Of a DNA stretch of 64,000 nucleotides, positions 7,658 to 62,796 are shown one piece after another. The stretch comes from Candidatus Aenigmatarchaeota archaeon. Lineage in GTDB: Archaea > Aenigmatarchaeota > Aenigmatarchaeia > PWEA01 > JACQIF01. Position 1 is the first letter of the stretch. The number at the start of each line of letters is the position of its first letter. Position numbers and translations under genes: made by a program. Location of the stretch: assembly GCA_016432325.1 (NCBI GenBank), contig CP066684.1:96001-160000 (forward strand). Direction: 5' to 3'. The notes under the pieces were generated by a model. The model made no database searches. It was not told where the DNA came from and worked only from the letters and a program-made list of their open reading frames with translations.

Positions 7658-7783
7658 TTACTGGTCCCTCCTCGCCTTTCCGAGTGTACGAGACTGCGGT
7701 CTCGACATGTTCGGCCGAGGGCCGAACTTTTCGAACCGCTGTTCGAAAATGTCGAAACTTTGTTTCGTACACGGTAAATCCAT
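7658..7783 (-). repeat. Multi-hairpin leader element (7684-7772) traversed by a 41-aa coupled ORF
   Basis: GTGTA-H1-ACAT-H2-H3-ATGT-H4-TACAC; ORF MDLPCTKQSFDIFEQRFEKF...RRDQ* ends TAA immediately before ATG 7657. Confidence 0.75.
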
Positions 7784-7787
7784 TTAA

Positions 7788-8186
7788 TCACTTTTTCGGT
7801 TTGGGACGGTCGGCCAACTCTTCCCTTACAATCGCTTTTACCTCTGTTTGCGTCGCATAGTGGGTGCGCAGGGGGCTGAGCAGGTCTATGTAGCTCTTGA
7901 ATTCCTCGAGATCCGAGCGAAGCGAGACCTTGTTCAAGAACTTCTTCGTGTTGGATACCTCTGTTTCCAGTTTCAAAATCTTGGTATTTAAATCTTCCAG
8001 AGCCTGCTCGAGCGCGCCGGCGCGCGTGCGCATCTCCTCGGTTCGCTTGAGGGAGGTGGTCTCGACGCTCATCTGTTTGGCTTCCATGCTGCGCGCAATC
8101 TCCTCGAGGTTGCGTATGCGGCGCATAGCCTCCTGCAGGACGCGGACGACTTCCCCAAAAGCCTCTTCGGCCGTGCGGGCGGCCAT
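7788..8186 (-). CDS. Coiled-coil hypothetical protein
   Basis: 132 aa of heptad repeats; RBS GAGGAGG. Confidence 0.7.
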   Translation of the reverse strand: MAARTAEEAFGEVVRVLQEAMRRIRNLEEIARSMEAKQMSVETTSLKRTEEMRTRAGALEQALEDLNTKILKLETEVSNTKKFLNKVSLRSDLEEFKSYIDLLSPLRTHYATQTEVKAIVREELADRPKPKK

Positions 8187-8243
8187 TTACCGGTCCCTCC
8201 TCATGCTTCTAATAGGTAAATATGAAACGGCAGTTTCATGCAT
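8187..8243 (-). promoter_or_regulatory. 18-codon upstream ORF/leader with GAAAC-TGCC-GTTTC hairpin
   Basis: MHETAVSYLPIRSMRRDR* abuts ATG 8186; similar to 12671-12727. Confidence 0.6.
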
Positions 8244-8365
8244 GTCCTTCCCATGTAATGTTCTTTAACCCGCCATAAAAAGGTTCTAAAAGGTTTAACG
8301 CGCGGCGCGGTACGCTTAAAGCAACAGCTTTAAAGGTTAATTAGCCGTTGTGCGAAAATCAACAT

Positions 8366-10006
8366 ATGCGTCTCAAGGGCATCTCGGGCCTTATGGTTGC
8401 CATCTTCCTGACGCTGATAGCCGTAGGACTGGCCTTCGCTTTCCTTGTCTTCGGTCGTTCAACTCAGGAGACCTTCGAAAAGGAGGTAGGCGGAGGAGTG
8501 GAAGGGCAGATAAGCTCTCTGCAGAGCGGGTTGGCAATAGCGAACGTCAACGCGAACAACGTCACTGTGAAGAACACCGGTCGCACGAACCTCGACGTCT
8601 CTAAGATTGACGTGCTTCTGGACGGGAAAAAGGCGTCGACGTCCGCGACAGCTGCCACGATTGTTCCGGGCGGCACTGCGGTCCTAACGTTGACGGGTTT
8701 TGTTCCTGGTGTGCATGCAGTTCGTGTGACAGGACCCGGAGGCGTCGGAGACGAAGGCGACTTCGGAGTCGCACCGTCTGGCGTCGTCGCGCTGTGGGAT
8801 TTTGAAGACGAAGACGCGAATCCGGACGATTCGGTCGGGACGAACAACGGCAGACTCAACGGTTCGACCGTGCTGCTCTTGCACTTCGACGAGGGCGCCG
8901 GAACAAAGGCTTACGACTCGACAAACTACAAGAACGACGGCACGTTTGTGAATAATGCTCTTTGGGGAGCCGGAGTGTCCGGCAACGGCGTGAAGCTCGA
9001 CGGCGTCGCCGCCAGCATTACGGTGCCGAATTCGCCTTCAGTAAACAATATTGGACTGTTCACAACAGAGGCGTGGTTCAGGTGGGACGCCCAAGGAGTC
9101 TCTCAGGTTCTCGTAACAAAATCAGACGCCCATCTCTACATAAGCGGCGCAAACGTGCTGAGCTCGTACTTCGGGGGATCCCCGTGCGCTTCCGGCGTCT
9201 CAATATCCAGAGGAGCGTGGTACCATAGCGCCGTAACTTTTGACGGCACCAACGTGAGGATTTACGTCAACGGGGACCTCAAGGCCACGTGCGCGCGGAC
9301 AGGCAACACAGGCACCGCGAACCTATTCGTCGGGCAGAACGGAATAGGCGGCCAGTTTTTCAACGGCACAATAGACGAGGTCGCGATACATGGGCGTGCA
9401 CTGTCTGCGGACGAAGTTGGTTCGCACTACGACGCGAAGCGCGCGCTGTTCTCCGAATACGTCAAGGGCTTCGCAGGAACGGCCGTGCGCTTTGACGGGG
9501 TTAATGATGATGTGGAAGTGCCCAAATCTGCCGCGCTCGATCCGGGCGCGCAGGTCAGCCTTGAAACGTGGATAAAGAGCGATCCGTCGAATCCCATGAA
9601 CACGTGCTGCCAGGGTCTTGTATCGACGGACTTCTACAACATCGGCGTGTCGACCGGCGGCGTTTATTTCGCCATAAGCTCGAACAGCGGAGCCAGCTAC
9701 CCCTTCACCGGCACGGTCGCGGTCTCCTCGGGCGTGTGGCACCATATCGTCGGAACCTATGACGGCACGGCTGTGCGGCTGTACGTTGACGGCGCGCAGG
9801 CGGCGAGCGCTCCGGCCTCTGGCGCGGTTTCGCCGATGATGGCCAACAGTTTCCTTACCGTGGCGTCCGAGGACGGTAGGACAGCATGCGGCGCTCAGTG
9901 CATAGGCGTCCGCTACTTCAGGGGCGACGTGCAATACGCCGCGGTCTACAATCGCGCCCTGAGTGCGCAGGAGATAAAATCCATATACGATGCATCCACG
10001 GCTTGA
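8366..10006 (+). CDS. Type IV pilin-like adhesin with two LamG domains
   Basis: KG/ISGLMVAIFL class III signal; two LamG sets (WYHSAVTFDG...FNGTIDEVAI; WHHIVGTYDG...FRGDVQYAAVYNRAL). Confidence 0.85.
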   Translation: MRLKGISGLMVAIFLTLIAVGLAFAFLVFGRSTQETFEKEVGGGVEGQISSLQSGLAIANVNANNVTVKNTGRTNLDVSKIDVLLDGKKASTSATAATIVPGGTAVLTLTGFVPGVHAVRVTGPGGVGDEGDFGVAPSGVVALWDFEDEDANPDDSVGTNNGRLNGSTVLLLHFDEGAGTKAYDSTNYKNDGTFVNNALWGAGVSGNGVKLDGVAASITVPNSPSVNNIGLFTTEAWFRWDAQGVSQVLVTKSDAHLYISGANVLSSYFGGSPCASGVSISRGAWYHSAVTFDGTNVRIYVNGDLKATCARTGNTGTANLFVGQNGIGGQFFNGTIDEVAIHGRALSADEVGSHYDAKRALFSEYVKGFAGTAVRFDGVNDDVEVPKSAALDPGAQVSLETWIKSDPSNPMNTCCQGLVSTDFYNIGVSTGGVYFAISSNSGASYPFTGTVAVSSGVWHHIVGTYDGTAVRLYVDGAQAASAPASGAVSPMMANSFLTVASEDGRTACGAQCIGVRYFRGDVQYAAVYNRALSAQEIKSIYDASTA

Positions 10007-10049
10007 TATTTTATAGTGGTTCGTACATACGTGATAGGAGTTGCACGAA

Positions 10050-12311
10050 ATGGCAGACGCCGTCCCCGAAGCCCCGCCGAGATACGAGCTAAAAGACACC
10101 ACGCTGCGCGTGCGGCCTGCAGGACTTCTGTACGAGTCTGGCGTTGAGGACTCTGATGCGTGCATGGCGCAGGTCGTGGACGCGCTGGCGAAGAACAAGA
10201 GCGCGCAGAGCGTTGCGGTCGTGGGAACGCGCGAGTACGAGTACAGCCTTGAAGAGACGCAGATGCTCAAGGATGTCGCGCGCGCCCTTGAAGAGATAAT
10301 CCGCGGGGCGTATCTCAGCGTCCACACGCTCGGAGAGTACAGAGACTACGTCGCTGACGACTTTGCGTACGTGCAAGCGCTCGTGATGACGAAGCTCTTG
10401 GGCGACCCTCTGGGCGTCTACGTCGACCTCAAGCGCCGCACCCGCCACATCAACGTCCGCGCGCGTTCCGTGGAAGGCAAGCGAACGGAGGCGTACAACT
10501 CCCTTATGAACAACGTCATCGTCCCTGTCCTGCAAATATTGGAGAACACGTCTCTCGTGCGCAACGCGAAACCGTTCCTCACCGGCTACAAGATAGGCGA
10601 TCGATCGGCGTACCGCCAGCTTTTCCACCCGACGGTGCGGCCCGTATTCATGCAGACGCGCTACCAGACGGAGATGCCGGAAGGCGCGGAGATAGTGGAT
10701 CGCTATGCGCTTCGGGACGGCGTTGAAGTTGAAATCTACCGCGTACGCGGCTCCGTGCGCTACGTGTACCACGCGATTCCGCCTGAGTTCCGCCTGAGCG
10801 AGGATCAGTATACGATTCTGGACGCGGCCCGGCGCTATATGATAGAACACAAGCCGCGGGAGATCGAATTCGCAGACCCCGAACGCATGCGGGAGATCTT
10901 CGCGAACATAGGCCGCGATCTCGTGACGGACATAGCAAACCAAATGGGACTGTCGCTGACACGCGATGAGACGGAACGCCTGACGTCCATACTGACGCGC
11001 TACACGGCGGGTCTTGGAGTCCTGGAGATACTGCTCTCCGACGAGAAGATACAAGACGTCTACATCAATTCGCCCATCGGGCAAAATCCGATATACGTTT
11101 TCCATCAGGACTATCAGGAGTGCGTAACGAACTTCATACCGACGCAGGAAGACGCGGAGTCCTGGGCCACGCGCTTCCGCCTCGTCTCCGGACGCCCGCT
11201 GGACGAAGCAAATCCCGTTCTCGATACGGAAGTGGTCGTGCCGGGAGGACGCGCAAGGGTCGCGATAGTGACGCGCACGCTTTCGCCGCAGGGGCTCGGG
11301 TTCTCGCTGCGCAGGCACAGGGACGATCCGTGGACCTACCCGCTGTTCATACACCCGAAGACCAGATATTTCAACGAGTTGTTCGCCGGACTCATGTCTT
11401 TCATCGTAGACTATTCGCGCACGTTCTTGATAGCGGGCACGCGTTCGTCGGGCAAGACGTCGCTGCTCAACGCCTCGCTGCTCGAGGTGATGCGCAAATA
11501 CCGCATCGTCACTGTGGAAGACACGCTTGAAATTCCTGTCAACCGCCTGCGCGCTCTTGGCTACAACGTGGAGTCATTGAAGTCGCGTTCTGTGATAACG
11601 CAGGTCGAGACCGAATTGCCGGCGGACGAGGCGATACGCACGTCGCTGCGTCTCGGCGACTCTGTCCTCATAATAGGAGAAGTGCGTTCACTCGAAGCGA
11701 AAGCCCTGTACGAGGCGATGCGCATCGGCGCTTTGGCAAATACGGTCGCAGGAACGATACACGGCGACTCTCCTTACGGCGTGTTTGATCGCGTCGTGAA
11801 CGACCTCGGCGTTCCTCCCACCTCGTTCAAGGCGACGGACCTCATAATAATATGCAACATGATGAAGAGCGCCGACGGCATCCACCGCTTCCGTCGCGTG
11901 ACGAGCGTGACGGAAGTGCGCAAGCACTGGAAGAACGACCCCCAGGAAGAGGGAGGGTTCGTGCCTCTCTTGCAGTACTCTTCCAAGGAAGACATTCTCA
12001 AGCCGACGGACACGCTCCTGAACGGCGAGTCTTTCATACTCAACGAAGTCGCGTCGTCCGTGCGCGAGTGGTCGGGCAACTGGCAGGACGTCTGGGAGAA
12101 CATCCTCTTGCGCGGCAGGATAAAGAAAGCAATAACAGAATACGCGATCGCGAGCGGCAAGCCGGACTTCATGGAAGCGCCCTTCGTCGTCGAGTCGAAC
12201 GACATCTTTCACCTCGTTTCCGAGCAGCTGCGCGCGGAAACAGGCTCGATACCGGCGGAGCGCGCGTACAACGCGTGGTACGACTGGTTCAAGGCGCGCG
12301 TGAAGTACTAG
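10050..12311 (+). CDS. Type IV pilus/secretion assembly ATPase (VirB11/CpaF/ArlI family)
   Basis: Walker A GTRSSGKTS, Asp box VEDTLE, Walker B IIGEVR, His box GTIHG. Confidence 0.93.
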   Translation: MADAVPEAPPRYELKDTTLRVRPAGLLYESGVEDSDACMAQVVDALAKNKSAQSVAVVGTREYEYSLEETQMLKDVARALEEIIRGAYLSVHTLGEYRDYVADDFAYVQALVMTKLLGDPLGVYVDLKRRTRHINVRARSVEGKRTEAYNSLMNNVIVPVLQILENTSLVRNAKPFLTGYKIGDRSAYRQLFHPTVRPVFMQTRYQTEMPEGAEIVDRYALRDGVEVEIYRVRGSVRYVYHAIPPEFRLSEDQYTILDAARRYMIEHKPREIEFADPERMREIFANIGRDLVTDIANQMGLSLTRDETERLTSILTRYTAGLGVLEILLSDEKIQDVYINSPIGQNPIYVFHQDYQECVTNFIPTQEDAESWATRFRLVSGRPLDEANPVLDTEVVVPGGRARVAIVTRTLSPQGLGFSLRRHRDDPWTYPLFIHPKTRYFNELFAGLMSFIVDYSRTFLIAGTRSSGKTSLLNASLLEVMRKYRIVTVEDTLEIPVNRLRALGYNVESLKSRSVITQVETELPADEAIRTSLRLGDSVLIIGEVRSLEAKALYEAMRIGALANTVAGTIHGDSPYGVFDRVVNDLGVPPTSFKATDLIIICNMMKSADGIHRFRRVTSVTEVRKHWKNDPQEEGGFVPLLQYSSKEDILKPTDTLLNGESFILNEVASSVREWSGNWQDVWENILLRGRIKKAITEYAIASGKPDFMEAPFVVESNDIFHLVSEQLRAETGSIPAERAYNAWYDWFKARVKY

Positions 12312-12604
12312 CGCACTCCAATCCCGAACATCACACGCAGTTCTTCCGAAGGCTGCCACGGCGGGTCGAAGACCACTTCCACGTTTACGTCGCTGACGCC
12401 TTCCAGAGCGCGCACGCGTTTCTTCATGTCGTCCACGAGAGCGGGTCCGTACGGGCAGAAAGGAGTCGTGAAGGTCATCCTGATGTAGACGGAGCCGTTT
12501 TCGACGCGCACTTCATAGACCAGATTGAGCGTTATGATGTCCATTCCTATTTCAGGGTCCTTGACCTGTTTCAGGACGTTCGTGACCTCTTCTTTGGTCG
12601 GCAT
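12308..12604 (-). CDS. DUF59/SufT (PaaD-like) Fe-S assembly protein
   Basis: VKDPEIG.DII.LNLVY, MTFTTPFCP and VFDPPW motifs. Confidence 0.9.
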   Translation of the reverse strand: MPTKEEVTNVLKQVKDPEIGMDIITLNLVYEVRVENGSVYIRMTFTTPFCPYGPALVDDMKKRVRALEGVSDVNVEVVFDPPWQPSEELRVMFGIGVR

Positions 12605-12670
12605 GAGAAGGATAGGAAAGGCACGCTTAAATATTGACTTTTATTAACCGCCCGCTTCAAGTTAGACAAT

Positions 12671-12727
12671 ATGGCAGAAACAGATGTTTCGTATCTACAG
12701 CTCAGATACGCAAAGAGGGACCCGTAG
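12671..12727 (+). promoter_or_regulatory. 18-codon upstream ORF/leader with two hairpins
   Basis: MAETDVSYLQLRYAKRDP* abuts ATG 12728; hairpins GAAAC-AGAT-GTTTC and CGTATCT-N7-AGATACG. Confidence 0.6.
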
Positions 12728-14809
12728 ATGGCCGGCGATAAGAAGAAAGGACCTTCTCCGGAAGAGATAAGACGGGAAGAGATTACGCGAATCCTGCGGG
12801 AAGAACGCATGCGGCTGCCCGTGCGCGAGTCGCAAGCCGCTCCTAACACGGCGTTTACGAGTAGGGAGTACCAGACGTTCATGGCGGAGGAGCGCTTCAG
12901 GGAGAAGCCGACCCTGTACGAGCGCGCAGCGCGCCTCGCCGGCCGTCTGAATCTGGAGCCCGACGCCGATACGAAAAAGCAGATGGAAGAGAACATAAAG
13001 TTCGCGCATCTTGACGTTACGCCTGCCGGAGCGTTCTCCCTTGCAATAGTAACGCCGATGCTGATAGCGGTCTTCGCGACTCTCGTGTTCTTCCTGCGGG
13101 TCGTCGGACTCACGGAGACGATGACTCTGTTCATGGGTTCGATTATCGCGTTTTACCATCTCTACAACTATCCGAAGAGCGCGGCCAAGATATTCCGCGT
13201 CAAGGCGGCGTCCGAAATAATACTTGCAGTAATCTACATGGTCATCTACATGCGTTCGTCTCCGAACCTCGAGGGCGCGATTAGATACGCGGCCGTCAAC
13301 CTGACGGGCCCGTTGGCGTACGATCTTCGCAAGCTCCTGTGGGACGTCGAAACGGGAAGGTACGCGACGATGGAGGACGCGCTCGATACGTACCTCTTGA
13401 GGTGGAAGACCAACGAAGAGTTTATAGAGTCGATAAATCTGATTCGCAATTCGATGGAGCAGCCGGAGTCGCGGCGCCACGCGGTTTTGGACGAGGCGGT
13501 GAACGTCGCTCTTACAGGAACGCGGGAGAAGATGCAGAAGTATTCGCAGTCTCTGAGAATGCCTGTGACGCTCATCCACACGATGGGCATCATCCTTCCG
13601 ATACTCATACTGGTTATGTTCCCTGTTCTGATTTTGTTCCTGGGAAAGCAGCTGAACCCGTGGGTTCTCGTGATCGGTTACGACGTCGTGTTGCCGATAA
13701 TAATCTACCTGCTGATTATGCGCGTGATGGAGAGCAGGCCCGTGGGGTTCTCCGTTCCTGACGTGTCTCTGCATCCGAAGTTCACGCCTCTCGGCAAGGT
13801 GAAAATCGGGGGGAAGCTCTACCAGATGTGGCCGTTCACAGCGGCGCTGACGTTCGCGCTCGTCGGGATATGCGCGTATTTCCTGGTGCCCGTGTACGAC
13901 AAGATAACCCTTGAGGCCCTAGGCCTTTCTGTGGCCGTGACCTGGGCGCTGGGCATCGGCATGATGGTCCACTTCCTGACCGGCACATCAGGACTGCTCA
14001 AGATACGCGGAGAGATAAAGAAGATTCAGGATGAGTTCGGCGAAGCACTGTTCCGTCTCGGAAACACGCTCTCTCTTGGAGCGCCTCTTGAAAAGGCGAT
14101 AGAAGACACCGTGCAGAAGTCCGCGGACCTGTCGATATCCGAGCTCTTCAGGCGCGTATTGAACAACGTGCGCCAGGGCCAGCTAAGCTTCGAGGCCGCG
14201 TTCTTCGACAAGCGCTACGGCGCGATATGGGACTATCCTTCGAAACTGATAATCAACGTGATGCACATCGTGATTGAAGCGACAAAGAAAGGGGTGCGCA
14301 TCGGCGCGAACTCGGCGATCGCAATTTCAAAATACATCCGCCAGATCCACGCCATAGACGAGGATCTGCGCGACATGCTTTCCGAGGCGACGACGAGCAT
14401 GCGATTCATGTCCGCGTTCCTCGGGCCTATGATAGCCGGCGTCACGGTCACGATGGCCGGCGTGATGATGCTGATATTCCAGCAGCTCGGCGCGAGTATC
14501 GCGGGCCTGCAGAACACGAACGTCCCGGGCTTCAGCCAGCTGCTGATAGGAGGCTGGGGAGAGTCCGTGGCGCAGATGCCCATCGCGGTCTTCCAACTCG
14601 TTGTTGGAATCTACATCCTTGAGATGATTTACCTCCTGTCGGTTCTGGAGATAGGAATAGAGAGCGGACCCGACGACATCGTGCAGATGCGCCACACCGC
14701 GGCGTGGTCTATATTAATAGGACTTTTGGTATACAGTTTCAGCCTCGTGATAACATGGTCCATCTTCGGAGCGTCTATACAATCCTTGATAACAGGAGGC
14801 GCGCTTTAG
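12728..14809 (+). CDS. Pilus membrane platform protein (TadB/TadC/ArlJ-like, two T2SSF-type halves)
   Basis: Two cytoplasmic domains (SSPNLEGAI; EFGEALFRLGN...GAPLEKA) each followed by TM helices; in the ATPase locus. Confidence 0.85.
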   Translation: MAGDKKKGPSPEEIRREEITRILREERMRLPVRESQAAPNTAFTSREYQTFMAEERFREKPTLYERAARLAGRLNLEPDADTKKQMEENIKFAHLDVTPAGAFSLAIVTPMLIAVFATLVFFLRVVGLTETMTLFMGSIIAFYHLYNYPKSAAKIFRVKAASEIILAVIYMVIYMRSSPNLEGAIRYAAVNLTGPLAYDLRKLLWDVETGRYATMEDALDTYLLRWKTNEEFIESINLIRNSMEQPESRRHAVLDEAVNVALTGTREKMQKYSQSLRMPVTLIHTMGIILPILILVMFPVLILFLGKQLNPWVLVIGYDVVLPIIIYLLIMRVMESRPVGFSVPDVSLHPKFTPLGKVKIGGKLYQMWPFTAALTFALVGICAYFLVPVYDKITLEALGLSVAVTWALGIGMMVHFLTGTSGLLKIRGEIKKIQDEFGEALFRLGNTLSLGAPLEKAIEDTVQKSADLSISELFRRVLNNVRQGQLSFEAAFFDKRYGAIWDYPSKLIINVMHIVIEATKKGVRIGANSAIAISKYIRQIHAIDEDLRDMLSEATTSMRFMSAFLGPMIAGVTVTMAGVMMLIFQQLGASIAGLQNTNVPGFSQLLIGGWGESVAQMPIAVFQLVVGIYILEMIYLLSVLEIGIESGPDDIVQMRHTAAWSILIGLLVYSFSLVITWSIFGASIQSLITGGAL

Positions 14810-14934
14810 GCGGAAAGGGAGACATTTCGATAGGACTGACCAAGTGGCTTGAGCTGATCGTAGCGGCTATCGCCGTGGTCTTGGTGCTGATAATGGCGTG
14901 GGGCCAGCTGTGCCATCTCGCCAACGCGTGTTAG
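14755..14934 (+). CDS. Small pilin-like protein (start uncertain)
   Basis: GGKG/DISIGLTKWLELIVAAIAVVLVLIM plus terminal Cys pair; nearest ATG lies inside the platform gene. Confidence 0.5.
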   Translation: MVHLRSVYTILDNRRRALGGKGDISIGLTKWLELIVAAIAVVLVLIMAWGQLCHLANAC

Positions 14935-15039
14935 GTGGTTATCATCGAACTATTGAAACTGCGTCTCGGAACGCCGCGTTCCGAGTATTTCGAACCGAAG
15001 TTCGAAAAGTTTCAAAGTTCCTCCAGAAGGTGCGTATAA
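14935..15039 (+). repeat. Three-way-junction leader element traversed by a 34-aa coupled ORF
   Basis: GTG directly after upstream TAG; MVIIELLKLRLGTPRSEYFEPKFEKFQSSSRRCV* ends TAA right before ATG 15040; contains TTTCGAAC-N4-GTTCGAAA. Confidence 0.7.
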
Positions 15040-15183: not shown

Positions 15184-15187
15184 TTGA

Positions 15188-15379: not shown

Positions 15380-15380
15380 T

Positions 15381-15921: not shown

Positions 15922-16004
15922 AACTCATAAACCCCCTTTCCACTCGACGTGGTTTTTAAACGCGACGCGCGAACTATTAAATCCTCCTTATCCGTACTAG
16001 GCGC

Positions 16005-23130: not shown

Positions 23131-23196
23131 ATGCCTGAAATTTCCGAAACAAGTTTCGTCATTCCAGCCATGGGAGGTTTGAGATATGCCTGAAAT
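23131..23196 (+). repeat. 66-bp leader repeat, copy 1 (20-codon uORF 23131-23193)
   Basis: 64/66 identical to 28374-28439. Confidence 0.9.
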
Positions 23197-23902: not shown

Positions 23903-24020
23903 GAAAATAGCATGCAGCCAAAGCGCCATTCCTTCTGTGGGTATCGGCGCGGAGGCAAAACGTAAAAACGAAACGCACGAAGCGTTTCAATCTTGCCGCG
24001 TTATGCGGCAAAGTGATTCG

Positions 24021-25493: not shown

Positions 25494-26264
25494 ATGAGCG
25501 AAGAACACAAGAAGATTATTGTTGGAGACAGAAGGCCCGACGGCCGCGCACTCGACGAGATGAGACCCATAACAGCCAAGGCGGGCGTGATTTCGCGCGC
25601 CAACGGCTCCGCGCATTTCGCCATGGGCAGTACCGTCGCAATCGCCGCGGCATACGGCCCGCGCGAGCTGCACCCCAAACACCTGCAGGACCCGGTCCGT
25701 GCGTATCTCAAGTACGTCTACGCCATGGCGCCGTTCTCCACGCAAGATCGCGTAAAGCCCGGCCCGTCAAGACGCTCGACTGAGATAAGCGAAGTCTCTC
25801 GACAGGCGTTCAACTCCGTGATATTCCTGGAGGAGTTCCCCAAGGCAGGGATTGAAGTCTTCGTCGAGATACTGCAGGCCAACGCCTCGACGCGATGCGC
25901 AGGAATAAACGCCGCGTCAATCGCGCTCGCCGACGCAGGCGTGCCGATGACCGATCTCGTATCCTCCTGCGCCGCAGGCAAGGTCGACGGAAAGATAATC
26001 CTGGACGTCGCGGGAGAGGAAGACACGGAAGGAGAAGTGGACATGCCGATAGCGTACATACCCCGCAAGGACGAGATCGCGCTGCTCCAGATGGACGGCC
26101 TGCTGACTCTCGACGAGTTTAAGGAGGCGCTTGAACTGGCGAAGAAAGGCTGCATGCAGATACACGAAAAGCAGGTGGCCGCGCTGAAGGAGCGCTACGT
26201 GCGCGTCGCCTCTGAGATAGCGAAGAAGGGGCCTGTGCGCGAGAGCGCAGAAGAGGTGGCTTAA
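25494..26264 (+). CDS. rrp41: Exosome catalytic subunit Rrp41
   Basis: RPDGR, YGPRE, RRSTEIS, TRCAGINA and LQMDG motifs. Confidence 0.95.
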   Translation: MSEEHKKIIVGDRRPDGRALDEMRPITAKAGVISRANGSAHFAMGSTVAIAAAYGPRELHPKHLQDPVRAYLKYVYAMAPFSTQDRVKPGPSRRSTEISEVSRQAFNSVIFLEEFPKAGIEVFVEILQANASTRCAGINAASIALADAGVPMTDLVSSCAAGKVDGKIILDVAGEEDTEGEVDMPIAYIPRKDEIALLQMDGLLTLDEFKEALELAKKGCMQIHEKQVAALKERYVRVASEIAKKGPVRESAEEVA

Positions 26265-26335
26265 ATGATAACCAAAATCTTGAAACTCTGTTTCAAATTT
26301 TCGTACCAGAGGTGGATGATATGATAACGAAAATC
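26252..26335 (+). repeat. Duplicated translation-initiation region flanking a GAAAC/GTTTC hairpin; 19-aa coupled ORF 26265-26324
   Basis: 26252-26279 vs 26308-26335 match 24/28 (RBS plus MITKI). Confidence 0.8.
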
Positions 26336-28373: not shown

Positions 28374-28439
28374 ATGCCAGAAATTTCCGAAACAAGTTTC
28401 GTCATTCCAGCCATGGGAGGTTTGAGACATGCCTGAAAT
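28374..28439 (+). repeat. 66-bp leader repeat, copy 2 (20-codon uORF 28374-28436)
   Basis: 64/66 identical to 23131-23196; TATAAATA at 28345. Confidence 0.9.
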
Positions 28440-30170: not shown

Positions 30171-31178
30171 TTAGTCGTGCACGAGAGGCGCAATCTTGCG
30201 CGGTTCAAAGCCGTTGCCGTTGGTGGTGTCCTTGTGTCTAATTTCCACCCACCCCGCGACGCGCTCGGCAATAGCATCTGGAGTGAAGCCGGCCTTGCGG
30301 TACAGGTCTTTCGGCGAGCCGGTCTCCCCCTTCTCGGCCCCTATTCTGCGCATGTGGGTCGGATACCTCTCCGAAAGCACGTCAGATACACTGCTCCCCA
30401 GCCCGCCGTCTATGCTGTGGTCTTCTGCTGTTACGACAAGACCGGTCTTCCTTGCATACTGTTCGATAAGCAAAGAGTCTATCGGTTTTATGGACGAGAT
30501 GTTTATCACCGCCGCACTCACGCCAGATCCCTCCAGCAGTGCTGCGGCTCCCAGCGACGGTTCTATCAGCGCCCCATAGCTCATTATCGCTACGTCGTCG
30601 CCGTCGCGAAGCACCTCGCCCTTTCCTATAGACCATTCCCAGTTGTCGTCGTGCAACGTCAATACTTCTGCGCGGGTCATGCTCATCGTCGCGGGTCCCG
30701 CGTATTTCGGGTCTTTTACGTTTGCGAGTTTGACTGTCATCTGTTTCGCTTCAACCCAGTCCGCCGGGCATAACACGGTGTCCGAGATCGCCTTGTTGTA
30801 TGATAGATAGTTGAGAACCTGGTTGCTCACGCCGTCTTGTCCGACCTGCAAGCCGACATGGCTGCCTACCTTGCAGACGTTGAGCTTCGCGCGCCTGACT
30901 ATCTGTTCGAACGGTTCGGCGGCGAGTTTGGAGAATCCCTCGAAGGTGGCGTAATAGACGCGTTCGCCTGTACGATGCGCCGCACCAGCCGCCATTGTGA
31001 CGCTGTCCTGTTCCGCTATGCCCGCATCAACGATGCGCCGCGGGTACTGTGCAGCGAAGTCCGCGAGGGACATGGAATTGCCAAGGTCCGATACGTAAAC
31101 GCGGATATTGTGCGTCTTGGCCGCTTCCACAGCGCCCCGACCGAGGCCGCTTCTCATCGATTCGTGCTGGCCCTTCAT
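30171..31178 (-). CDS. Transketolase, C-terminal subunit
   Basis: DAGIAEQ, GQDGVSNQ, SIKPID and TAEDHSIDGGLGS motifs. Confidence 0.9.
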   Translation of the reverse strand: MKGQHESMRSGLGRGAVEAAKTHNIRVYVSDLGNSMSLADFAAQYPRRIVDAGIAEQDSVTMAAGAAHRTGERVYYATFEGFSKLAAEPFEQIVRRAKLNVCKVGSHVGLQVGQDGVSNQVLNYLSYNKAISDTVLCPADWVEAKQMTVKLANVKDPKYAGPATMSMTRAEVLTLHDDNWEWSIGKGEVLRDGDDVAIMSYGALIEPSLGAAALLEGSGVSAAVINISSIKPIDSLLIEQYARKTGLVVTAEDHSIDGGLGSSVSDVLSERYPTHMRRIGAEKGETGSPKDLYRKAGFTPDAIAERVAGWVEIRHKDTTNGNGFEPRKIAPLVHD

Positions 31179-31372
31179 GCGCGACTCCCTCCTTCTCCGC
31201 GCTGCACGGGAACCGCAGTCCCCGGCATTTTCGAACAGCGGTTCGAAACTTTACGAATAGCTATTCGTAAACTTGCGACCGCGTCGCAAGAGTTCGACCG
31301 AAGGCCGAACATGTCGGGAAGCTCCACTTCCCGTACAGGGAAGGATGAAACCGCGTGTTTCGTGCCCTTCAT
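31175..31372 (-). repeat. Multi-hairpin element (31202-31338) traversed by a 65-aa ORF coupled to both transketolase genes
   Basis: Six hairpins; 23-nt identity with the 7684-7772 element; ATGA overlaps at both ends; starts MKG like the downstream gene. Confidence 0.75.
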
Positions 31373-39599: not shown

Positions 39600-39702
39600 G
39601 GGATTCACCCGGTTTCGACTTGGTGAAATCCGACTCGGTGATTTAATGGATGAAATACAAGAATTTCAAACCTACCTCGCCTGCATAGGGGTGGCGATGT
39701 AG
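39600..39702 (+). promoter_or_regulatory. Structured rps15 leader with 18-codon coupled uORF (39646-39702)
   Basis: GGATT-CACC/GGTG-AAATCC hairpin; MDEIQEFQTYLACIGVAM* abuts ATG 39703; TGAAAT-N6-ATTTCA. Confidence 0.55.
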
Positions 39703-47344: not shown

Positions 47345-47617
47345 CTACTTCTTCATCGCGGCGCTGTACACCACGTACAAGAACGCTATCAAGAGCAGCG
47401 CTTCCTGTATCACGTGAGCGGCTCCTGCCGTAACAATGCCGAGATTCAGGTGCACCGTCAGGTAGATGAGCTCTGTAACGGCCCATAGCCCGAACACGAC
47501 TGTCCAGAGTCCCTGCTTGTTGTTCGACGCCCAGTAGGCTCCGTAGAGACCGACCAGAAGAGCGATTACGTGCACGGCCTGATACGCCATGTCAGGAAGT
47601 ACCAAATCAAATGCCAT
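47345..47617 (-). CDS. Small three-TM membrane protein
   Basis: Start at MAFDL after strong RBS GGAGGTGA; T-rich tract downstream. Confidence 0.7.
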   Translation of the reverse strand: MAFDLVLPDMAYQAVHVIALLVGLYGAYWASNNKQGLWTVVFGLWAVTELIYLTVHLNLGIVTAGAAHVIQEALLLIAFLYVVYSAAMKK

Positions 47618-47673
47618 CAATTCACCTCCTTTGAAGTTTTCGAGGTGAGGAGGCACGAAGAGTTCATCCACAT
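47617..47673 (-). promoter_or_regulatory. 18-codon uORF with anti-SD hairpin
   Basis: MWMNSSCLLTSKTSKEVN* overlaps the next start (TGATG); TCACCTC pairs with GAGGTGA. Confidence 0.55.
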
Positions 47674-54210: not shown

Positions 54211-54264
54211 CCTAACCACCTTACTGCCGGAAACTTGAAACCCGCGGTTTCATAGTTCGGGCAT
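54199..54264 (-). repeat. Leader element with duplicated start (MPEL/MPEL) and GAAAC-CGCGG-GTTTC hairpin
   Basis: ATG CCC GAA CTA at 54264 vs TTG CCA GAA CTG at 54210. Confidence 0.7.
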
Positions 54265-54982: not shown

Positions 54983-55028
54983 CGTACACCCACACTCTGC
55001 TAATCTCTCGTTCTGCTCGCTTATATAA

Positions 55029-56752: not shown

Positions 56753-56844
56753 GTTCAAGACGCGCCATCGCCTTTAAATAGTCCGCGTTTTCCACTTCAG
56801 GCCAAGGGGATACGGTGTCTATAGAATTGCGTATCAACGGGAAG

Positions 56845-57639: not shown

Positions 57640-58705
57640 CTTCTTTCAGCATGTCAATCCATTCGACTTTCTGCGAAGGGACCTTGTTCCACAGAGTGTA
57701 ACGCTCCGGGCGGACAGCGCTGGCCTTCTTGAGGAGTTCGGCCACCTGCTCCGGACTGTTTTCTTCGAGAGGCCTCAGCACGTAGCCGAGAAGGTCCCTC
57801 TCCTCAAAGAGTTCAATCAGTTCGTCGAAGAGCGTGCTCGCGTCAAAGAACAGGCCCGCGGGCATTTGCGAAGCGTTATGCTTGTACACGAGCGCAGTCA
57901 GGAGCGTGGACGTGCCGACAAGCTGCCCGTGGAAATAGCCGTTCTTCAAGAACGGGGCCAAAAGCTTTTCCAGTTCGTGCTCGGCGCCTGAGCAGTAACG
58001 AGACGAGTCGTGCATCGCCAGCCCGGAAAGGAACAGCGCTTCTGCGAGATCGTCTTCGTCGTGTTCGTTCAGGACGCGCAGCGCGGCCTCAGCCGCCATG
58101 GACATGTGGCGGTTGTCAGGCACGAAAGACGACTCGGCCATTGCAAGAGAAACGTCCTGCAGCGCCATCACGTCAGAGAGAACGTCCAGTCGCCCCGCCT
58201 TCTGGAGCTCGCCCGATTTTTTCCAGAGATATTCGGGGATCACTATCTTTACCGGATACTTTGTGGGATAGGATTTTTTGGTGCCGTTTATCAGGGCGCA
58301 GTTCCTCGACAAGAGCCCATCGTGCGTCGGAGCCGTCGGAACCGAGACTAGGGGAGCGCCGGAGCGGAACGCGACCATCTTCGCGACATCCAGCACGCGT
58401 CCGCCTCCGAAGCCCATCACGGTCGTAGGACGGGACATTGCGAGTATCGTATCTACGGTCTCCACGCTTTCTGTCTGTACGGAGAAGATGCGTTCCTCCT
58501 TGTACACTCCCAGTTTTTTCAGGTAGTCGAGCATGAAGGAATTATCCGTCAACACGGCGAGGCCTGAGCCGTCGCGCGGCAGCGTTTCAACGAGCCTCTC
58601 CTCGGACGCGCAATAGACAAACCGCGTGCCCGCATGGCGGACCGCGCCCTCGAGGCTCGTGCGTCCCGTTGCCCTCAGGATTCTGAGGAGCGATGTGGAA
58701 AGCAT
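57608..58705 (-). CDS. egsA: Glycerol-1-phosphate dehydrogenase
   Basis: GFGGGRVLDVAK, VPTAPTHDG, SR..SGAEH and HGQLVG motifs; next to GGGPS. Confidence 0.82.
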   Translation of the reverse strand: MLSTSLLRILRATGRTSLEGAVRHAGTRFVYCASEERLVETLPRDGSGLAVLTDNSFMLDYLKKLGVYKEERIFSVQTESVETVDTILAMSRPTTVMGFGGGRVLDVAKMVAFRSGAPLVSVPTAPTHDGLLSRNCALINGTKKSYPTKYPVKIVIPEYLWKKSGELQKAGRLDVLSDVMALQDVSLAMAESSFVPDNRHMSMAAEAALRVLNEHDEDDLAEALFLSGLAMHDSSRYCSGAEHELEKLLAPFLKNGYFHGQLVGTSTLLTALVYKHNASQMPAGLFFDASTLFDELIELFEERDLLGYVLRPLEENSPEQVAELLKKASAVRPERYTLWNKVPSQKVEWIDMLKEVTALGARASL

Positions 58706-58750
58706 GTCAAAAAGGACTATTGTTTAGGATATAAAGACGGCGTCTTCCGG

Positions 58751-61000
58751 CTACTCCAGAATTATCGGTTGCTGGCCGTAAGGACCGTATGTGCGGCCTT
58801 TGAGGGAGGATATCTCGTTCTCCAGTCTCTCGATGCGGGCCAAGAGCTCTGCCGTGTGTTCGGGGCCTGTGCGCTCGGCCTCTGCAGCGACACGCGCCTT
58901 GAGCCTCTGCACTTCTTCGAGTTCTGCGCGCAGGCGACGCGCGTTCTGATCGAGGTCGCTGTGGACGCGCTGCACGTCGCTCTCTATCTGCCTCCTTATG
59001 TCGTCGACGCTGGCCACGGCACGCGCCTGTATCTTCTCTATCTCGCTCTCCGCCTGCCTCTTCTTGCGGTCCAGCTCTTCCGACAGCGCGAACAGCACGT
59101 TTTCGACCTTTGCCGTTGCGAGAGCCTCGGCGTCCTGCGTAAGTATTTCGCGCACGCTCTCCTTGAGGTTTCTCTGGACACCTCCGTATTTTTCGTCCAT
59201 TCTGCCTTCCAGCGCGTGCGCGCGGCTGTCGACGCGCTGCGCAACCATCGGCTCCAGGCCGGTGCGGAACTGTTCAAGGCGCGCCTTTGTTTCTCCGCGT
59301 ATCTCTTGCAGGCGCGCTTCGAACTTGCGCGATGCGGCCTCTGTGGCGCCGCGTACCTGTCCTGTCTGTTCGCGTACCTCAGAACGCATCGCATCGAGGG
59401 ACTCTTTGAACTCCTTGCGAAGGTTCTCCTCGCCCGTCCTCTGAAGGGCGAGCACGTTGTCTATCGCGTCAAGTTTCCTCTGGAGGTCTGAAATTGAATT
59501 GAAGTGTTCTCTCGTTATGTCGGCCAGAGACGAAGCGACAGAGGACTGCAGGGCCTCTGCCTTTTCCGCGTGTGATTGTTTGAGATAATCGAGCTGCTTG
59601 TTGTATTTGCCGTCCATGGCGTTCACGTGCGAACGCAGGGACTCTGCGATGCTGATGACCTCTTTCTTCATCGCTTCGGCCGTCTCGACGACCTGTTTTT
59701 CCAGTTCGCGGTCGGCTATCTCGGCGCGCGTCCTGGCGTTTTCAACAGAACCTTCGAAAGCCCTCATCTGGGAGTCCATCGCGTCGAACCTCTGCTGGTG
59801 TTGGACGGTGGAGTCGGCAACGGCCCTGTTCACCTCGCGGGAAAGCTTTTCGTCAAAGCCCTTGTTTTGAAGGTCCACGAGGTTTTCGAGATATTCTATC
59901 TTGCCGTCTATCTTTTGGAATACTCCTTTCTCGTCGAGCTGCTGCTCAACGAGCGCCGCGATTCCCGAGCGCAGCGACTCCTTCTCCGAATTGAGGTCCT
60001 TTATCACGGCTGCGAGCGTTTCGTTGACGTCCTTGAAGTTGCCGCTTATCTTCAGGAGCTTCGTGTTCATCGATTCCATCATCCTGTTTTCCAGAGCGGA
60101 CTCGCTCTCGGCCATCGCCGTTTCCATGCGTTCCAGCCTCCCGGCAAGCCCGTCGTTGGCGACGCGCAGGGCGGAATCCATAACTTCCAGCCTTCTCGCG
60201 AGTTCGATGAGTTTGGCCCTCTGTTCCTCGGACACGCGCGCCGTGTACAGCTTCTCCTGTTCGAGCTCCTTGTCCATGGAGGCTTTAGCGCGCGACACCG
60301 AAGCCTCCGCGGCAGAACGCACGGCATCCTTCATCGCGTCTGTCGCTTTCGCGATTTCAGCGGAGACGTACTTCTTGGTGCCCGCCTCCTGCAGCGACGC
60401 GACATTCTCCAGGGAGGTCATCCTGGTTGTGATGTCGCTGACGACAGCGCGATTCTCGTCAAGCGACGCCCTGAGCGCAGCGGCGAGTTCGGTCCGCCTT
60501 TCGGCAAGAGTCTTGTCCAGGGCGTCTATGGAAGAGTCTATCTTCTTGTTCAGCGCGGCAATTCCTGCGGCCATTTCGCGTTCCACGACTTCGCGCGTTT
60601 CCTTATCGCTTTTTCCAGACTGCGCTTCGATGCGATCGAGCCTTATCTGAAGATCCCTGAGTTCGGTGGCGCTGTCTGCGCTCGTCTGTTTCAGCCTTGC
60701 GAACGCGTCCTTCCTGAACGCATCGAAATCCTGCCGTATGGCCGAGGTTCCCTTTGCGATGCCCTCGGCAACGCTTTTTGACACATCGGCTTCGAACCCT
60801 CCGACTGTGTTCTCGAGCCTGCGGAGCTTGTCTGAAACCTCCTTCCTGAGGACGTCCAGATGCGCTGCCTGTTGGCCTTCCGTTTCGGACAGGCTGTCCG
60901 CCTTCCTCTCGATGTCATCGAGCCTTTTCTGAACGGCCGTGACCTTCTCAGTGACAGACTCAGTCACGTCCACGAGCCGCTTGACTATGCTGTCTTCCAT
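58751..61000 (-). CDS. Long coiled-coil protein
   Basis: 749 aa, almost entirely heptad/helical, no NTPase motif. Confidence 0.75.
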   Translation of the reverse strand: MEDSIVKRLVDVTESVTEKVTAVQKRLDDIERKADSLSETEGQQAAHLDVLRKEVSDKLRRLENTVGGFEADVSKSVAEGIAKGTSAIRQDFDAFRKDAFARLKQTSADSATELRDLQIRLDRIEAQSGKSDKETREVVEREMAAGIAALNKKIDSSIDALDKTLAERRTELAAALRASLDENRAVVSDITTRMTSLENVASLQEAGTKKYVSAEIAKATDAMKDAVRSAAEASVSRAKASMDKELEQEKLYTARVSEEQRAKLIELARRLEVMDSALRVANDGLAGRLERMETAMAESESALENRMMESMNTKLLKISGNFKDVNETLAAVIKDLNSEKESLRSGIAALVEQQLDEKGVFQKIDGKIEYLENLVDLQNKGFDEKLSREVNRAVADSTVQHQQRFDAMDSQMRAFEGSVENARTRAEIADRELEKQVVETAEAMKKEVISIAESLRSHVNAMDGKYNKQLDYLKQSHAEKAEALQSSVASSLADITREHFNSISDLQRKLDAIDNVLALQRTGEENLRKEFKESLDAMRSEVREQTGQVRGATEAASRKFEARLQEIRGETKARLEQFRTGLEPMVAQRVDSRAHALEGRMDEKYGGVQRNLKESVREILTQDAEALATAKVENVLFALSEELDRKKRQAESEIEKIQARAVASVDDIRRQIESDVQRVHSDLDQNARRLRAELEEVQRLKARVAAEAERTGPEHTAELLARIERLENEISSLKGRTYGPYGQQPIILE

Positions 61001-61022
61001 TGAATATCACCGACTTCCATCG

Positions 61023-62408
61023 TCACACCTTCAGCCTTCTTTCCAGCGATTCAAGGTCGCGCATCAGGGACTCTTCCTCGCCCTTCTGCTTGGCCAGAAC
61101 GTCGGCGAGCTGCGCCTTTATGTCTTCCGTTGATTTGGCGAGCCTGTCGATTTCGTCTCTCTGATCCGTGACGGCAAGGCGCAGCGTTTCCGTCGTCGCC
61201 TTGGTTTCCGCAAGCTCGTTGGATATCTCGTCGAATATCTCCTGTTTAAGAATGTTGGCCGAATGGTCAAACATCTCGGCGAACCTGTTGGTGGCTTCGT
61301 TGAGCTTGTAGTCGAACTTGCCTTCGAGATTCTCTTCCACGGTTTCTATGCGCTTGACGCGGTCCTGCACGTCGATTATTACCGACAGCGCGCTTTCCCT
61401 GAGGCGTTCGGCCTCCTTCTTGAGTTCTGAGAGTACTCTCTTCTCGGAGCCGGCCAGCGCTTCCTTGGTCTCCTTCTCGGCGTCGGCGGCCTTCCGCTGC
61501 ATCTGGTTTATGGCAGAAGACGCCTGGTCTTCGGCGCGGCGCCGGACGGCGGCCATCTCGTTCTCCGTCGCGATCATCGCCTCGTCCGCCTTCTTGCGTG
61601 CGTCTTCGGCTACCTGCGCGAGCGAACTGCCGATGAACTGTCTTATCGCCCTCTCGGAGACGCGTTCGTCGACGGCAGTGACTTGGTTGGTGAGGGACTG
61701 CAGGAGATTCGCGAGGCGTTCGGCTTCCTCTGTGTGGAGCTTGAGGGTCTTTTGCATGAGCGCGAGCTCCTCCTTGCTGCTCGTTTGAGACAGCCTAGAC
61801 TGCAACTCTCCTAGCGCAGAATCCGTGTGGTTGAGCCTGGATGACAGCGTGGACTGCATCCGTTCCAGGTCTTCGGTCCTTGCCGCGGTGCGCGTCTTGG
61901 CTTCGAGCATCCTTATGGATTCGTGAACGGTTGCCTCGGTTGACGCGACGCGCGCGTCCAGCGCCTTCATGCGATCTGCGATAGAGGCGACATCTGCCAT
62001 CCTGTTTTCTAGCGCGCGCGTCTTGTCGTTGAGAGTCTGAATCTCCGACAGCCTGCCTTCCACGGAGCGGACGCGCTCGAGTAAGGGCGTCACGTCAGGA
62101 GGCTGTCGCGTCTCCAATGACCTGAACCTCGCGTCGGCGCCTGTCAGGGAACTCTGAAGGTTGGATTCCATTGATTGCACGCGTTCGTTGAGAGAAGAAA
62201 CGGATTCTAACGTTGATTTGATGTTTTCGGCTTCCTGGCGCGCCACTTCAAGCTGTCTGCGGATTTCGACCAACCCTTCGCTTTCGGAAGGTCTCGTCTG
62301 CTCTACTTCTCCTATCTTCTTTTCGAGCGCCGCGAGCCTCTCTGCCAGAGTCACCTGCAGTTCGGCCAGTTCGCCTATCTGATTGACCAATTCGTCTACT
62401 CCATCCAT
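61023..62408 (-). CDS. Coiled-coil protein
   Basis: 461 aa of heptads with recurring L.ER..S.E units. Confidence 0.75.
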   Translation of the reverse strand: MDGVDELVNQIGELAELQVTLAERLAALEKKIGEVEQTRPSESEGLVEIRRQLEVARQEAENIKSTLESVSSLNERVQSMESNLQSSLTGADARFRSLETRQPPDVTPLLERVRSVEGRLSEIQTLNDKTRALENRMADVASIADRMKALDARVASTEATVHESIRMLEAKTRTAARTEDLERMQSTLSSRLNHTDSALGELQSRLSQTSSKEELALMQKTLKLHTEEAERLANLLQSLTNQVTAVDERVSERAIRQFIGSSLAQVAEDARKKADEAMIATENEMAAVRRRAEDQASSAINQMQRKAADAEKETKEALAGSEKRVLSELKKEAERLRESALSVIIDVQDRVKRIETVEENLEGKFDYKLNEATNRFAEMFDHSANILKQEIFDEISNELAETKATTETLRLAVTDQRDEIDRLAKSTEDIKAQLADVLAKQKGEEESLMRDLESLERRLKV

Positions 62409-62692
62409 CAGCGCTCACCGACGCTTTTTCTGAGAGCACGCAATATCTCTTCCTCGTCTCCGAGAACGCTCTCCACTATCTCGGATTTTATGCTGTCCGC
62501 CGACTTGAGCCTGCCTTCCATGCCGTCGATTCTGCTTTCAAGCATGCGCACCTTTCGCTTGAGCTCTTCCAGCATGGATGTGAGATACTCTACGTCTTTT
62601 GAAGGCGCGGCGTGCGCGCTTCCGAGTTCTTCCCTGACCTCTTTCAGGGACTCTTCCACGGCTTCACGCACGGCGTCTTTAAGGGTTCCCAT
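62408..62692 (-). CDS. Small coiled-coil protein
   Basis: Start moved to MGTLK at 62692 (RBS GGTGA); TGATG coupling downstream. Confidence 0.7.
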   Translation of the reverse strand: MGTLKDAVREAVEESLKEVREELGSAHAAPSKDVEYLTSMLEELKRKVRMLESRIDGMEGRLKSADSIKSEIVESVLGDEEEILRALRKSVGER

Positions 62693-62697
62693 GAACT

Positions 62698-62796
62698 TCA
62701 CCAATTTCCTCGTGGGATGTACGAGAACCACGTTCTCGACATGTCGAAATTCCACGGAATTTCGTACAACTTGAAATCGCATTTCATTGTTCCCAT
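62698..62796 (-). repeat. Multi-hairpin leader element traversed by a 32-aa ORF starting MGTMK
   Basis: TGTA-H-ACATGT-H-TACA at 62718-62768; start duplicates the downstream MGTLK. Confidence 0.75.

Follow-up and report, generated by a model that had tools for sequence, protein, structure and literature searches.

Rickettsia palindromic elements (RPEs) are bacterial sequences of ~100-150 bp, for which neither a target duplication nor an inverted copy of the target has been reported, and repetitive extragenic palindromes (REPs) lie mostly at 3' ends and are not known to duplicate their target. Fold-back template switching is an established source both of patterns in which a sequence X is followed by inverted X and by X again, and of palindrome perfection; template-switch products are known from quasipalindrome correction in bacteria and from snap-back templated insertions in end joining. 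The transposition of archaeal introns has an unknown mechanism, which is presumed to act at the DNA level (PMC4090602). Literature searches returned no description of the units reported here, which were found in a 64,000-nucleotide stretch of DNA (the window) from an Aenigmatarchaeota (DPANN) archaeon, and in which the start of a gene is followed by a short hairpin, a partial inverted copy of that start, a new Shine-Dalgarno (SD) sequence, and a second copy of the start that leads into the gene. We consider it on balance probable that they are short palindromic insertions, made without a transposase, that bring a direct and a partial inverted copy of their target and are kept where the duplication preserves function.

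The window comprises bases 96001-160000 of a one-contig genome (G000; 874,869 bp, 56% G+C, estimated to be 90% complete), and the only public runs found to contain the stretch were groundwater DNA metagenomes of one study. Crude gene calls over the whole of G000 yielded 1073 genes, with 90.6% of the sequence coding and 9.4% non-coding. Pfam bore out the gene names used below (proteasome alpha subunit, the two RNase PH genes rrp41 and rrp42, prefoldin beta, transketolase N and C, S15, SBDS, and a T2SSF-type protein). The comparison genome, G001, which was taken whole, is a metagenome-assembled genome of a Candidatus Aenigmatarchaeota archaeon of the same genus from Northern California groundwater.

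Hairpin units and duplicated gene starts

A preliminary description of the window, made from the sequence alone, had listed 13 segments as one family of start-duplicating hairpin leaders. All 13 are present, with the coordinates, strands, and translations that it gave, including the early TGA at 54264 (Table 1). They form a mixed set composed of 57-nt units (type A), start-duplicating units, multi-hairpin trains, one non-duplicating twin hairpin (23964), and one anti-SD hairpin (47617). A GAAAY-Nx-RTTTC hairpin is found at 11 of the 13 sites. Below, X1 denotes the old start region, X2 the second copy of the start together with the gene, and anti-X the partial inverted copy of X1, so that the order within a unit is X1, core hairpin, anti-X, new SD, and X2. 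The presence of a fresh SD at the 3' end, as proposed earlier, was confirmed. Units are ~45-57 nt in size, can be stacked to ~200 nt, and mostly have a period of 51-62 nt; between 9 and 28 nt of X are duplicated.

Codons or starts are duplicated at seven of the 13 sites (14935, 23131, 26265, 28374, 31175, 54211, and 62698), while at sites 8187, 12671, 39646, and 7658 the recurrence is limited to ATGG or to the SD-stop-ATG context. Genome-wide, at least 10 of 12 start bases recur upstream in 14 genes, compared to 2-9 in permutations, and in 11 of the 14 the two copies are 51-59 nt apart. Start duplication is thus real, but rarer than its place in the title of the preliminary description would suggest, and only a very small number of differences in the window underlie their apparent bias toward synonymous third positions.

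At the rrp41/rrp42 junction, which has RNase_PH domain genes on both sides, 24 of 28 bases recur with a period of 56. The corresponding junction in G001 is plain, the rrp41 stop codon TAG being followed by AT and then by ATG, an ordinary junction such as the deletion of one unit had been predicted to restore. The psmA gene of G001 starts at the position of X1 behind an identical SD, and pfdB of G001 has an equal TATA-to-ATG spacing; neither carries a unit. Over 70 nt, the psmA unit of G000 is 96% identical to the pfdB unit, and beyond these 70 nt the two loci are unrelated. One unit has been copied between the two genes, which have no more than their first 11-15 bases in common. Both genes begin with MAEIP in G001, and codons 2-4 of pfdB in G000 now match psmA. 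To judge from the sequences, this sharing looks like gene conversion guided by those 11-15 bases. The train between the transketolase subunit genes contains a 65-codon open reading frame (ORF) with ATGA coupling at each end, and public DNA contigs span it without differences. In G001, the OB-fold gene has one ATGCCTGAACAG start only and the S15 gene has an SD followed by ATG; the unit is absent in both cases.

The hairpins occur far beyond chance on the genome scale. Strict GAAAC-N3-6-GTTTC was found at 54 sites in G000, 49 of them in the non-coding 9.4%, and TGAAAC-N3-5-GTTTCA in 28 copies, compared to 0 for a reversed-pattern control. Perfect 7-bp hairpins number 725 (401 non-coding) versus ~390 in order-3 Markov genomes; in non-coding DNA, perfect hairpins with stems of at least 7 bp merge into 244, at a density that is similar in divergent, tandem, and convergent spacers. 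Direct repeats in non-coding DNA, counted with the 100-N run at the genome end excluded, peak at periods of 50-59 nt (19 of 46). Exact X/anti-X/X triples show an excess (47 vs. ~27 for 7-mers, 10 vs. 0-4 for 8-mers) that is weak because the copies are imperfect. At many loci anti-X covaries with the local X, the outer arms being locus-specific, and most copies share only ~10-16 nt of core, without common terminal inverted repeats.

A chance resemblance or an assembly artefact might be suspected, since stop-free frames of 18 codons are not rare (~0.4 by our estimate, (61/64)^18) and the 13 sites were first picked by eye. However, the reversed-pattern controls gave 0, the Markov and permutation controls were exceeded, and public contigs of four DNA runs match the window region exactly, with zero differences or indels; as these contigs reproduce every unit, the units are not assembly artefacts. 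The hairpin, permutation, reversed-pattern, and contig results already refute this explanation, to which we assign a negligible probability. No unit-less variants were seen in the contigs of the four runs, which, as contigs drop rare variants, shows only that the units are real. The contigs of all four runs break solely at the 70-nt psmA/pfdB repeat (23137-23184, 28398-28409). Repeats as short as this one already fragment assemblies of the organism.

Table 1. Hairpin units and related features of the window.
Feature	Position	Strand	Layout and remarks
rrp41/rrp42 unit	26252-26335	+	X1 26252-26279 (SD, rrp41 stop, ATG and 4 codons); hairpin 26280-26296; inverted copy of codons 3-5 26297-26304; X2 26308-26335; rrp42 ATG 26321
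psmA unit	23131-23196	+	X1 23131-23141, at ancestral start; hairpin 23145-23158; inverted copy 23161-23171; new SD 23172-23177; X2 with real ATG 23186; proteasome alpha subunit
pfdB unit	28374-28439	+	X1 28374-28384, 21 nt behind TATA box; hairpin 28388-28401; inverted copy 28404-28414; SD 28415-28420; X2 ATG 28429; Prefoldin_2
Transketolase N/C subunit spacer train	31175-31372	-	194 nt, ~7 hairpins; ATGAAGGGC at both ends
OB-fold gene unit	54211-54264	-	X1 ATGCCCGAACT ended by TGA after 4 codons; X2 TTGCCAGAACT after AAGGTGG SD
Type A 57-nt unit before coiled-coil gene	8187-8243	-	ATGCATGAAAC..GTTTCAT, ATTTAC, GAGGGACCNGTAA; alignment of 8 genomic copies
Type A 57-nt unit before T2SSF/TadC-like gene	12671-12727	+	
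57-nt type-A-like unit before ribosomal protein S15 gene	39646-39702	+	X1 retains ancestral GGTGA SD
126-nt four-hairpin unit before coiled-coil gene	7658-7783	-	Type A 3' module at its end
105-nt three-hairpin unit	14935-15039	+	ATCGAACTA and ATGGAACTA recur 99 nt apart
99-nt multi-hairpin unit in coiled-coil operon	62698-62796	-	ATGGGAAC recurs
SBDS 5' leader twin hairpin	23964-24020	+	Net +48 nt vs. G001; no start copy
Anti-SD leader	47617-47673	-	CCTCCTCACCTC can pair with GGAGGTGA; no core hairpin or start copy; only loosely related
GAAAC-CGCC-GTTTC hairpin with flanking inverted arms	6869-6882		Convergent (3'-3') spacer; family member away from any start

The start of the coiled-coil gene at 62408-62796 is ambiguous, as it may be a GTG within the hairpin unit (62755) or ATGGGAACC at ~62692, as first read.

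Insertion polymorphism and sites of insertion

Across 95 junctions that are collinear between G000 and G001, a hairpin unit is present only in G000 at ~13 and only in G001 at ~5. All six of the window units that could be compared (rrp42, psmA, pfdB, S15, the OB-fold gene, and the SBDS leader) are absent from G001; the empty sites sought in relatives by the preliminary description therefore exist, and both genomes hold private units. In alignments with G001, X1, not X2, matches the ancestral start, and the gene proper is displaced ~55 nt downstream behind the new SD. X1 stands behind the ancestral SD at psmA and S15; at pfdB it follows the TATA box at the distance listed in Table 1 (21 nt), which points to a leaderless ancestor.

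The core hairpin is present in 17 of the 22 genomes of the order (eight copies in G019, seven in G017, four in G009), with 0 in controls. Among 151 genomes of the phylum, most have 0-2 core hairpins and G000 has the maximum. The low-G+C relatives keep the layout of SD-stop-ATG, hairpin, inverted copy, and SD-stop-ATG. At the junction before a small basic-protein gene, followed through 20 genomes, units are found only in G000 and in G019/G017, and 17 genomes have an ordinary coupled junction; the site is empty in G001 and in three congeners of G019. A unit lies at the S10 start in both G001 and G009, though not in G000, and at pfdB in G000 and G019. These comparisons show that the units are insertions, that X1 is the ancestral start, that the family is order-wide and predates the genus, and that the same junctions were struck independently. 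In G070, which belongs to another family of the same class, 15 identical TGAAAC-AAC-GTTTCA hairpins were observed, resembling an independent burst of a related repeat.

The modules are not limited to starts: they also occur in promoters, at the ends of genes, in the leaders and trailers of tRNAs, in frame inside coding sequences, and in rRNA. The mobile element directed at translation-initiation regions that had been proposed earlier thus holds as far as insertions supplying an SD and a start are concerned; it does not hold as to exclusiveness, and no classical mobilising enzyme was found (see below). In the X1/hairpin/anti-X/X2 pattern, the 5' ends of two tRNA genes are duplicated next to their promoters (753595 and 829672), and so is one tRNA 3' end (683042). 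TATA boxes are duplicated at 757307 and 850343; in both segments (757307-757376 and 850343-850412) a 14-nt TATA segment (GAAGGTTTAAATAG-like) is repeated at a distance of 56 nt, its two copies flanking a hairpin together with an inverted copy of TTTAAA, and one of the two loci lies in a divergent promoter region adjoining the EndA gene. At 452776, the last ten codons of a gene are duplicated. The copies differ at 5 of 30 positions, all silent for that gene; three of these differences fall within the stretch that pairs with the inverted copy, where G-U pairs preserve the pairing.

Four clear in-gene inserts distinguish G000 from G001, in uL5 and 316944 of G000 and at two places in G001. Each of them is 48 nt long, contains two hairpins, is in frame, and is stop-free (4/4). 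No gene split by a frame-breaking unit was detected in a tblastn search with G001 ORFs covering genes shared at 45% identity or more. A cysteinyl-tRNA synthetase (CysRS) gene (190702-192177, minus strand) contains two adjacent perfect hairpins, ~45 nt, in frame.

Coupling, regulation, and splicing

Among 48 upstream regions with hairpins, a set chosen without bias, 11 contain an ORF that terminates precisely on the start codon. Nine of these ORFs belong to a single subfamily of 57 nt (or 54 nt), type A; the remaining ORF ends scatter. Type A has its own ATG in the hairpin stem (ATGCATGAAAC) and its own TAA or TAG, the TAA being located in the conserved 3' module (GAGGGACCNGTAA). The mini-ORFs of the preliminary description are therefore present, but their coupling to the next gene is inherent only to type A and is elsewhere a consequence of duplicating a coupled junction. 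At rrp42 and transketolase the relay arises because an ATGA junction was duplicated with a period of 2 mod 3. By our rough estimate, the chance of such a relay at both loci is ~1 in 500, and operon-internal survivors have therefore probably been filtered for preserved coupling.

Type A is conserved in full length at eight or more loci, always with 38 nt from hairpin to ATG and with a built-in ATG and TAA. Such conservation would fit the units, chiefly type A with its 18-codon ORF, being cis-regulatory leaders, in which translation of the mini-ORF or a hairpin-binding protein determines whether X1 or the real start becomes the pairing partner of the inverted copy. Indeed, the inverted copy is able to pair with either copy of X, the three X1/X2 differences in the paired tract at 452776 all preserve pairing, a compensatory change was found in the unit common to G019 and G017, and the hairpin core is kept across an order. 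We nevertheless regard regulation as a rather unlikely explanation. The units are missing from congener orthologues (6/6) and from 17 of 20 genomes at one junction, the downstream genes are functionally unrelated, and the same modules occur in tRNA leaders, gene ends, and coding regions. The predicted accessibility of the SD and start was 0.44 in 36 unit-bearing genes and 0.445 in the other 1036 genes; being equal to the genome mean, it is unchanged by the units, and no masking of the real start is predicted at leader units. The conserved ORF is confined to type A, and no window match to any Rfam family was obtained. A strand bias of UNCG loops, considered as a sign of RNA-level selection, was rejected as weak (TGCG 12 vs. 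CGCA 6). As modelled, accessibility provides no support for the genome-wide RNA switch suggested earlier, and the units are dispensable in relatives.

Members of the family are also found in structural RNA. The 16S rRNA gene of G000 (637095-639272) has 2178 nt, compared to 1478 positions in the Rfam model from which the insert borders were taken (the 16S gene is absent from G001). It contains inserts of 45 nt in the 530 loop, which is universally conserved, 43 nt at GUUGAAA/CUUAA, and 543 nt near model position 1208. The 43-nt twin hairpin is a canonical hBHBh' structure (GUUG:CAAC, 3-bp flanking helices), BHB standing for bulge-helix-bulge. No clean single BHB was found in the 45-nt insert of the 530 loop, which may be nested; alternatively, the mature rRNA may carry A for G527. 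In G019, the 790 loop of 16S rRNA holds a 45-nt insert with a TGAAAC hairpin and the X1/anti-X/X2 layout, which splits GGATTAGATAC/CCC. This insert forms a BHB, and its removal gives back the universal GGAUUAGAUACCC. Judging from the BHB motifs at the G000 and G019 inserts, modules of the family are probably spliced in structural RNA. TGAAAC hairpins also lie within tRNA genes of G004, G010, and G012. The 16S gene of G000 further has 145 nt where the model has ~40.

In leaders, too, the units could be EndA/RtcB-spliced mobile introns, or relaxed derivatives of such introns, that are cut from the mRNA leader, the duplicated start and SD being a mere fail-safe. The canonical 43-nt intron of the same twin-hairpin style, the G019 insert whose removal restores GGAUUAGAUACCC, the TGAAAC hairpins in tRNA genes, and the presence of an EndA gene speak for this possibility, as does an Asp/Glu racemase frame (RIGVLGGIGPEAT; 812661-812700). 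The frame has no in-frame start, the ATG that follows a TATA box and an SD being out of frame, and removing 34 nt, a candidate short mRNA intron, would give MRIGVLGG. Since the racemase lacks an in-frame start unless these 34 nt are removed, some mRNA splicing in this organism appears plausible, but this case represents a different class of short insert.

We consider splicing of the leader units quite improbable. A strict BHB scanner, which recovers the 16S introns used as controls, gave 1.1 matches per 100 nt at the 13 leader sites and 0.6 in random windows; five of the 13 sites had none, and the matches were unrelated to unit borders. A relaxed scan matched 85% of random windows and was uninformative. 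Excision of one period needs a self-complementary 4-mer in X, which, by our inspection, rrp42 and psmA do not have, and the hairpins show asymmetric internal loops of 1-4 nt instead of a pair of 3-nt bulges separated by 4 bp. At X2, both the start and the SD are intact throughout, and efficient splicing would make them needless. The in-gene members of 45-48 nt are all in frame, and scanning of those in uL5, 316944, and CysRS revealed no BHB that would excise them in frame. EndA is encoded by one gene and is a 186-aa protein of the alpha4 type, with both the N- and the C-terminal domain present; one report describes this type as accepting strict motifs only (PMC5829648). The excised or bypassed leader unit that had been envisaged is accordingly not borne out, BHB motifs occurring at the background rate and without consistent boundaries. 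ARAGORN identified approximately nine credible tRNA genes in G000, most of them with introns, the others presumably being hidden by multiple or non-canonical inserts; so few recognisable tRNAs contrast with the sole EndA being of a type that is reported to require a strict BHB.

Spread of the units and relation to known systems

The preliminary description had called for a search for a HUH/RAYT transposase or a reverse transcriptase. Neither was found in G000: PF01797 (Y1 transposase) gave no match there, while control genomes do match, and the genome contained no reverse transcriptase, TnpB, or DDE transposase (DDE_Tnp_1) that could be found, nor any match to PF01867 (Cas1). The only recombinase-type genes found were those of two tyrosine recombinases (392 and 395 aa), which lie near 289.3 and 783.2 kb. 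The second of them (783.2 kb) is located ~1 kb from a tRNA gene bearing hairpin inserts. Ectopic spacer integration of the Cas1 type, suggested by the 28+28 layout at rrp42, was rejected, no Cas1 having been found, and so were excision footprints of hairpin-forming transposases, no transposase having been found.

It is unlikely, in our view, that the units are classical non-autonomous transposons (of the MITE, REP, or PATE type, that is, miniature inverted-repeat transposable elements, REPs, or palindrome-associated transposable elements) moved in trans by an enzyme of a virus, a plasmid, or the cell that hosts this episymbiont, or by one of the two tyrosine recombinases. Insertion polymorphism, the two integrase-family genes, and lineage-specific bursts (28 copies in G000 and 15 identical ones in G070, with 0-2 in most of the 151 genomes) would fit such elements. 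Against them stand the lack of a Y1/HUH, TnpB, DDE, reverse transcriptase, or Cas1 gene in a one-contig, ~90% complete genome, a duplication whose length varies from 9 to 28 nt, the missing common terminal inverted repeats, a core of just ~10-16 nt common to most copies, and the fact that each unit consists in part of its own target sequence in inverted form.

If the units are instead transposase-free insertions, they would enter, or be copied into, a site together with a direct target duplication of 9-28 nt and a partial inverted copy. Behind a start codon, the old promoter or SD would then drive the decoy start X1, and the new SD and X2 would drive the gene, the mini-ORFs being by-products of the decoy. 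Units would survive at gene ends, promoters, and tRNA leaders and trailers, and also in frame where a protein region tolerates them; those in rRNA and tRNA would happen to form a BHB and be spliced. At operon-internal junctions, only coupling-relaying units, whose stop lies on or overlaps the next ATG, seem to persist. The spread itself may proceed through short-homology recombination and replication template switching, with fold-back synthesis creating or perfecting the inverted copy. At 413091 and 68225 the core hairpin is itself composed of target sequence, and these target-built cores, together with the locus-specific inverted copies and the psmA/pfdB copying, point to host-driven copying. 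Template switching would account for the inverted copies and the target-built cores, but not for the shared foreign cores.

Several points weigh against this reading. Subfamilies share sequence that does not derive from the target (the 57-nt type A, and CAAATGAAAC..GTTTCAAAAG with GGTGAAGTTC), so that some mechanism must move foreign sequence and local template switching alone is insufficient. An inverted copy that ends where X1 begins was seen at only a handful of loci, and at the 79% identity between G001 and G000 the exact insertion points are not readable. The two tyrosine recombinases could be involved. Coincident units at the same genes could reflect function instead of target preference. 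Finally, the retention of the units in the mRNA and the start of translation at X2 are inferences.

A broader possibility, which we put forward tentatively and hold to be less than likely, is that one transposase-free process seeds hairpin modules genome-wide, each with a direct and an inverted copy of adjacent sequence, and that location sets their fate as a spliceable intron in rRNA or tRNA, a decoy-start leader, or a translated insert. Through pairing of its inverted copy with the flank upstream of it, a module in rRNA or tRNA could form a BHB and thereby become spliceable; this would amount to the DNA-level birth and spread of archaeal introns, and provides a concrete, testable route for the origin and movement of BHB introns at the DNA level.

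If transposase-free insertion is true, it represents selfish DNA that is made harmless by duplicating the signal it interrupts, in genomes that are usually deemed streamlined; at approximately 1 in 5 comparable junctions, one of two congeners has such a unit that the other lacks. It would explain annotation traps in DPANN genomes, such as miscalled start codons, spurious short ORFs, unusual leaders, and N-termini that are shared, and it offers natural tests of translational coupling and of the conversion of leaderless into SD-led genes.

The units resemble RPEs in being dispersed palindromic repeats of a small, host-dependent genome that have no visible transposase and occupy both intergenic and, in frame, genic positions; the in-frame, stop-free inserts in protein genes (uL5, 316944, and two in G001) are an RPE-like trait. 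Unlike RPEs, they measure 45-57 nt, are archaeal, rebuild start codons and SDs, and occur as rRNA and tRNA introns. With REPs and the bacterial interspersed mosaic elements (BIMEs) that are associated with RAYT, and with elements derived from IS200/IS605, they have in common that they are short extragenic hairpins in many copies, often in composite arrays, and the 244 merged hairpins in the non-coding DNA of G000 accord with this; in contrast to REP/BIME, there is no Y1/HUH or TnpB here, a duplication of 9-28 nt accompanies the units, and these lie preferentially at gene boundaries, starts among them. MITEs, such as the Correia elements and those of Sulfolobus and Methanocaldococcus (reviewed in PMC10969869), are likewise non-autonomous and flanked by direct repeats and can give expression signals to a neighbouring gene, but terminal inverted repeats, a fixed short duplication, and a related autonomous insertion sequence are MITE features, none of which was seen here. 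Archaeal BHB introns (transposing tRNA introns of Thermoproteales and the cbf5 mRNA intron; PMC4090602, PMC2738675) match the family in size and hairpin style in the 16S rRNA of G000 and G019, whereas the leader and in-gene units have no BHB above background, the leader units keep a full spare start, and splicing is not needed for the gene. Template-switch products share the pattern of X, inverted X, and X and the imperfect palindromes that match their own flank, but the cases known arise as sporadic mutations and do not make up a dispersed family that has a shared core and prefers a ~55-nt period. RPEs, REP/BIME, MITEs, and BHB introns are thus the closest kinds, each of which departs from the units in at least one defining feature, and the units appear to be an undescribed kind of selfish DNA that may be related to the origin of archaeal introns.

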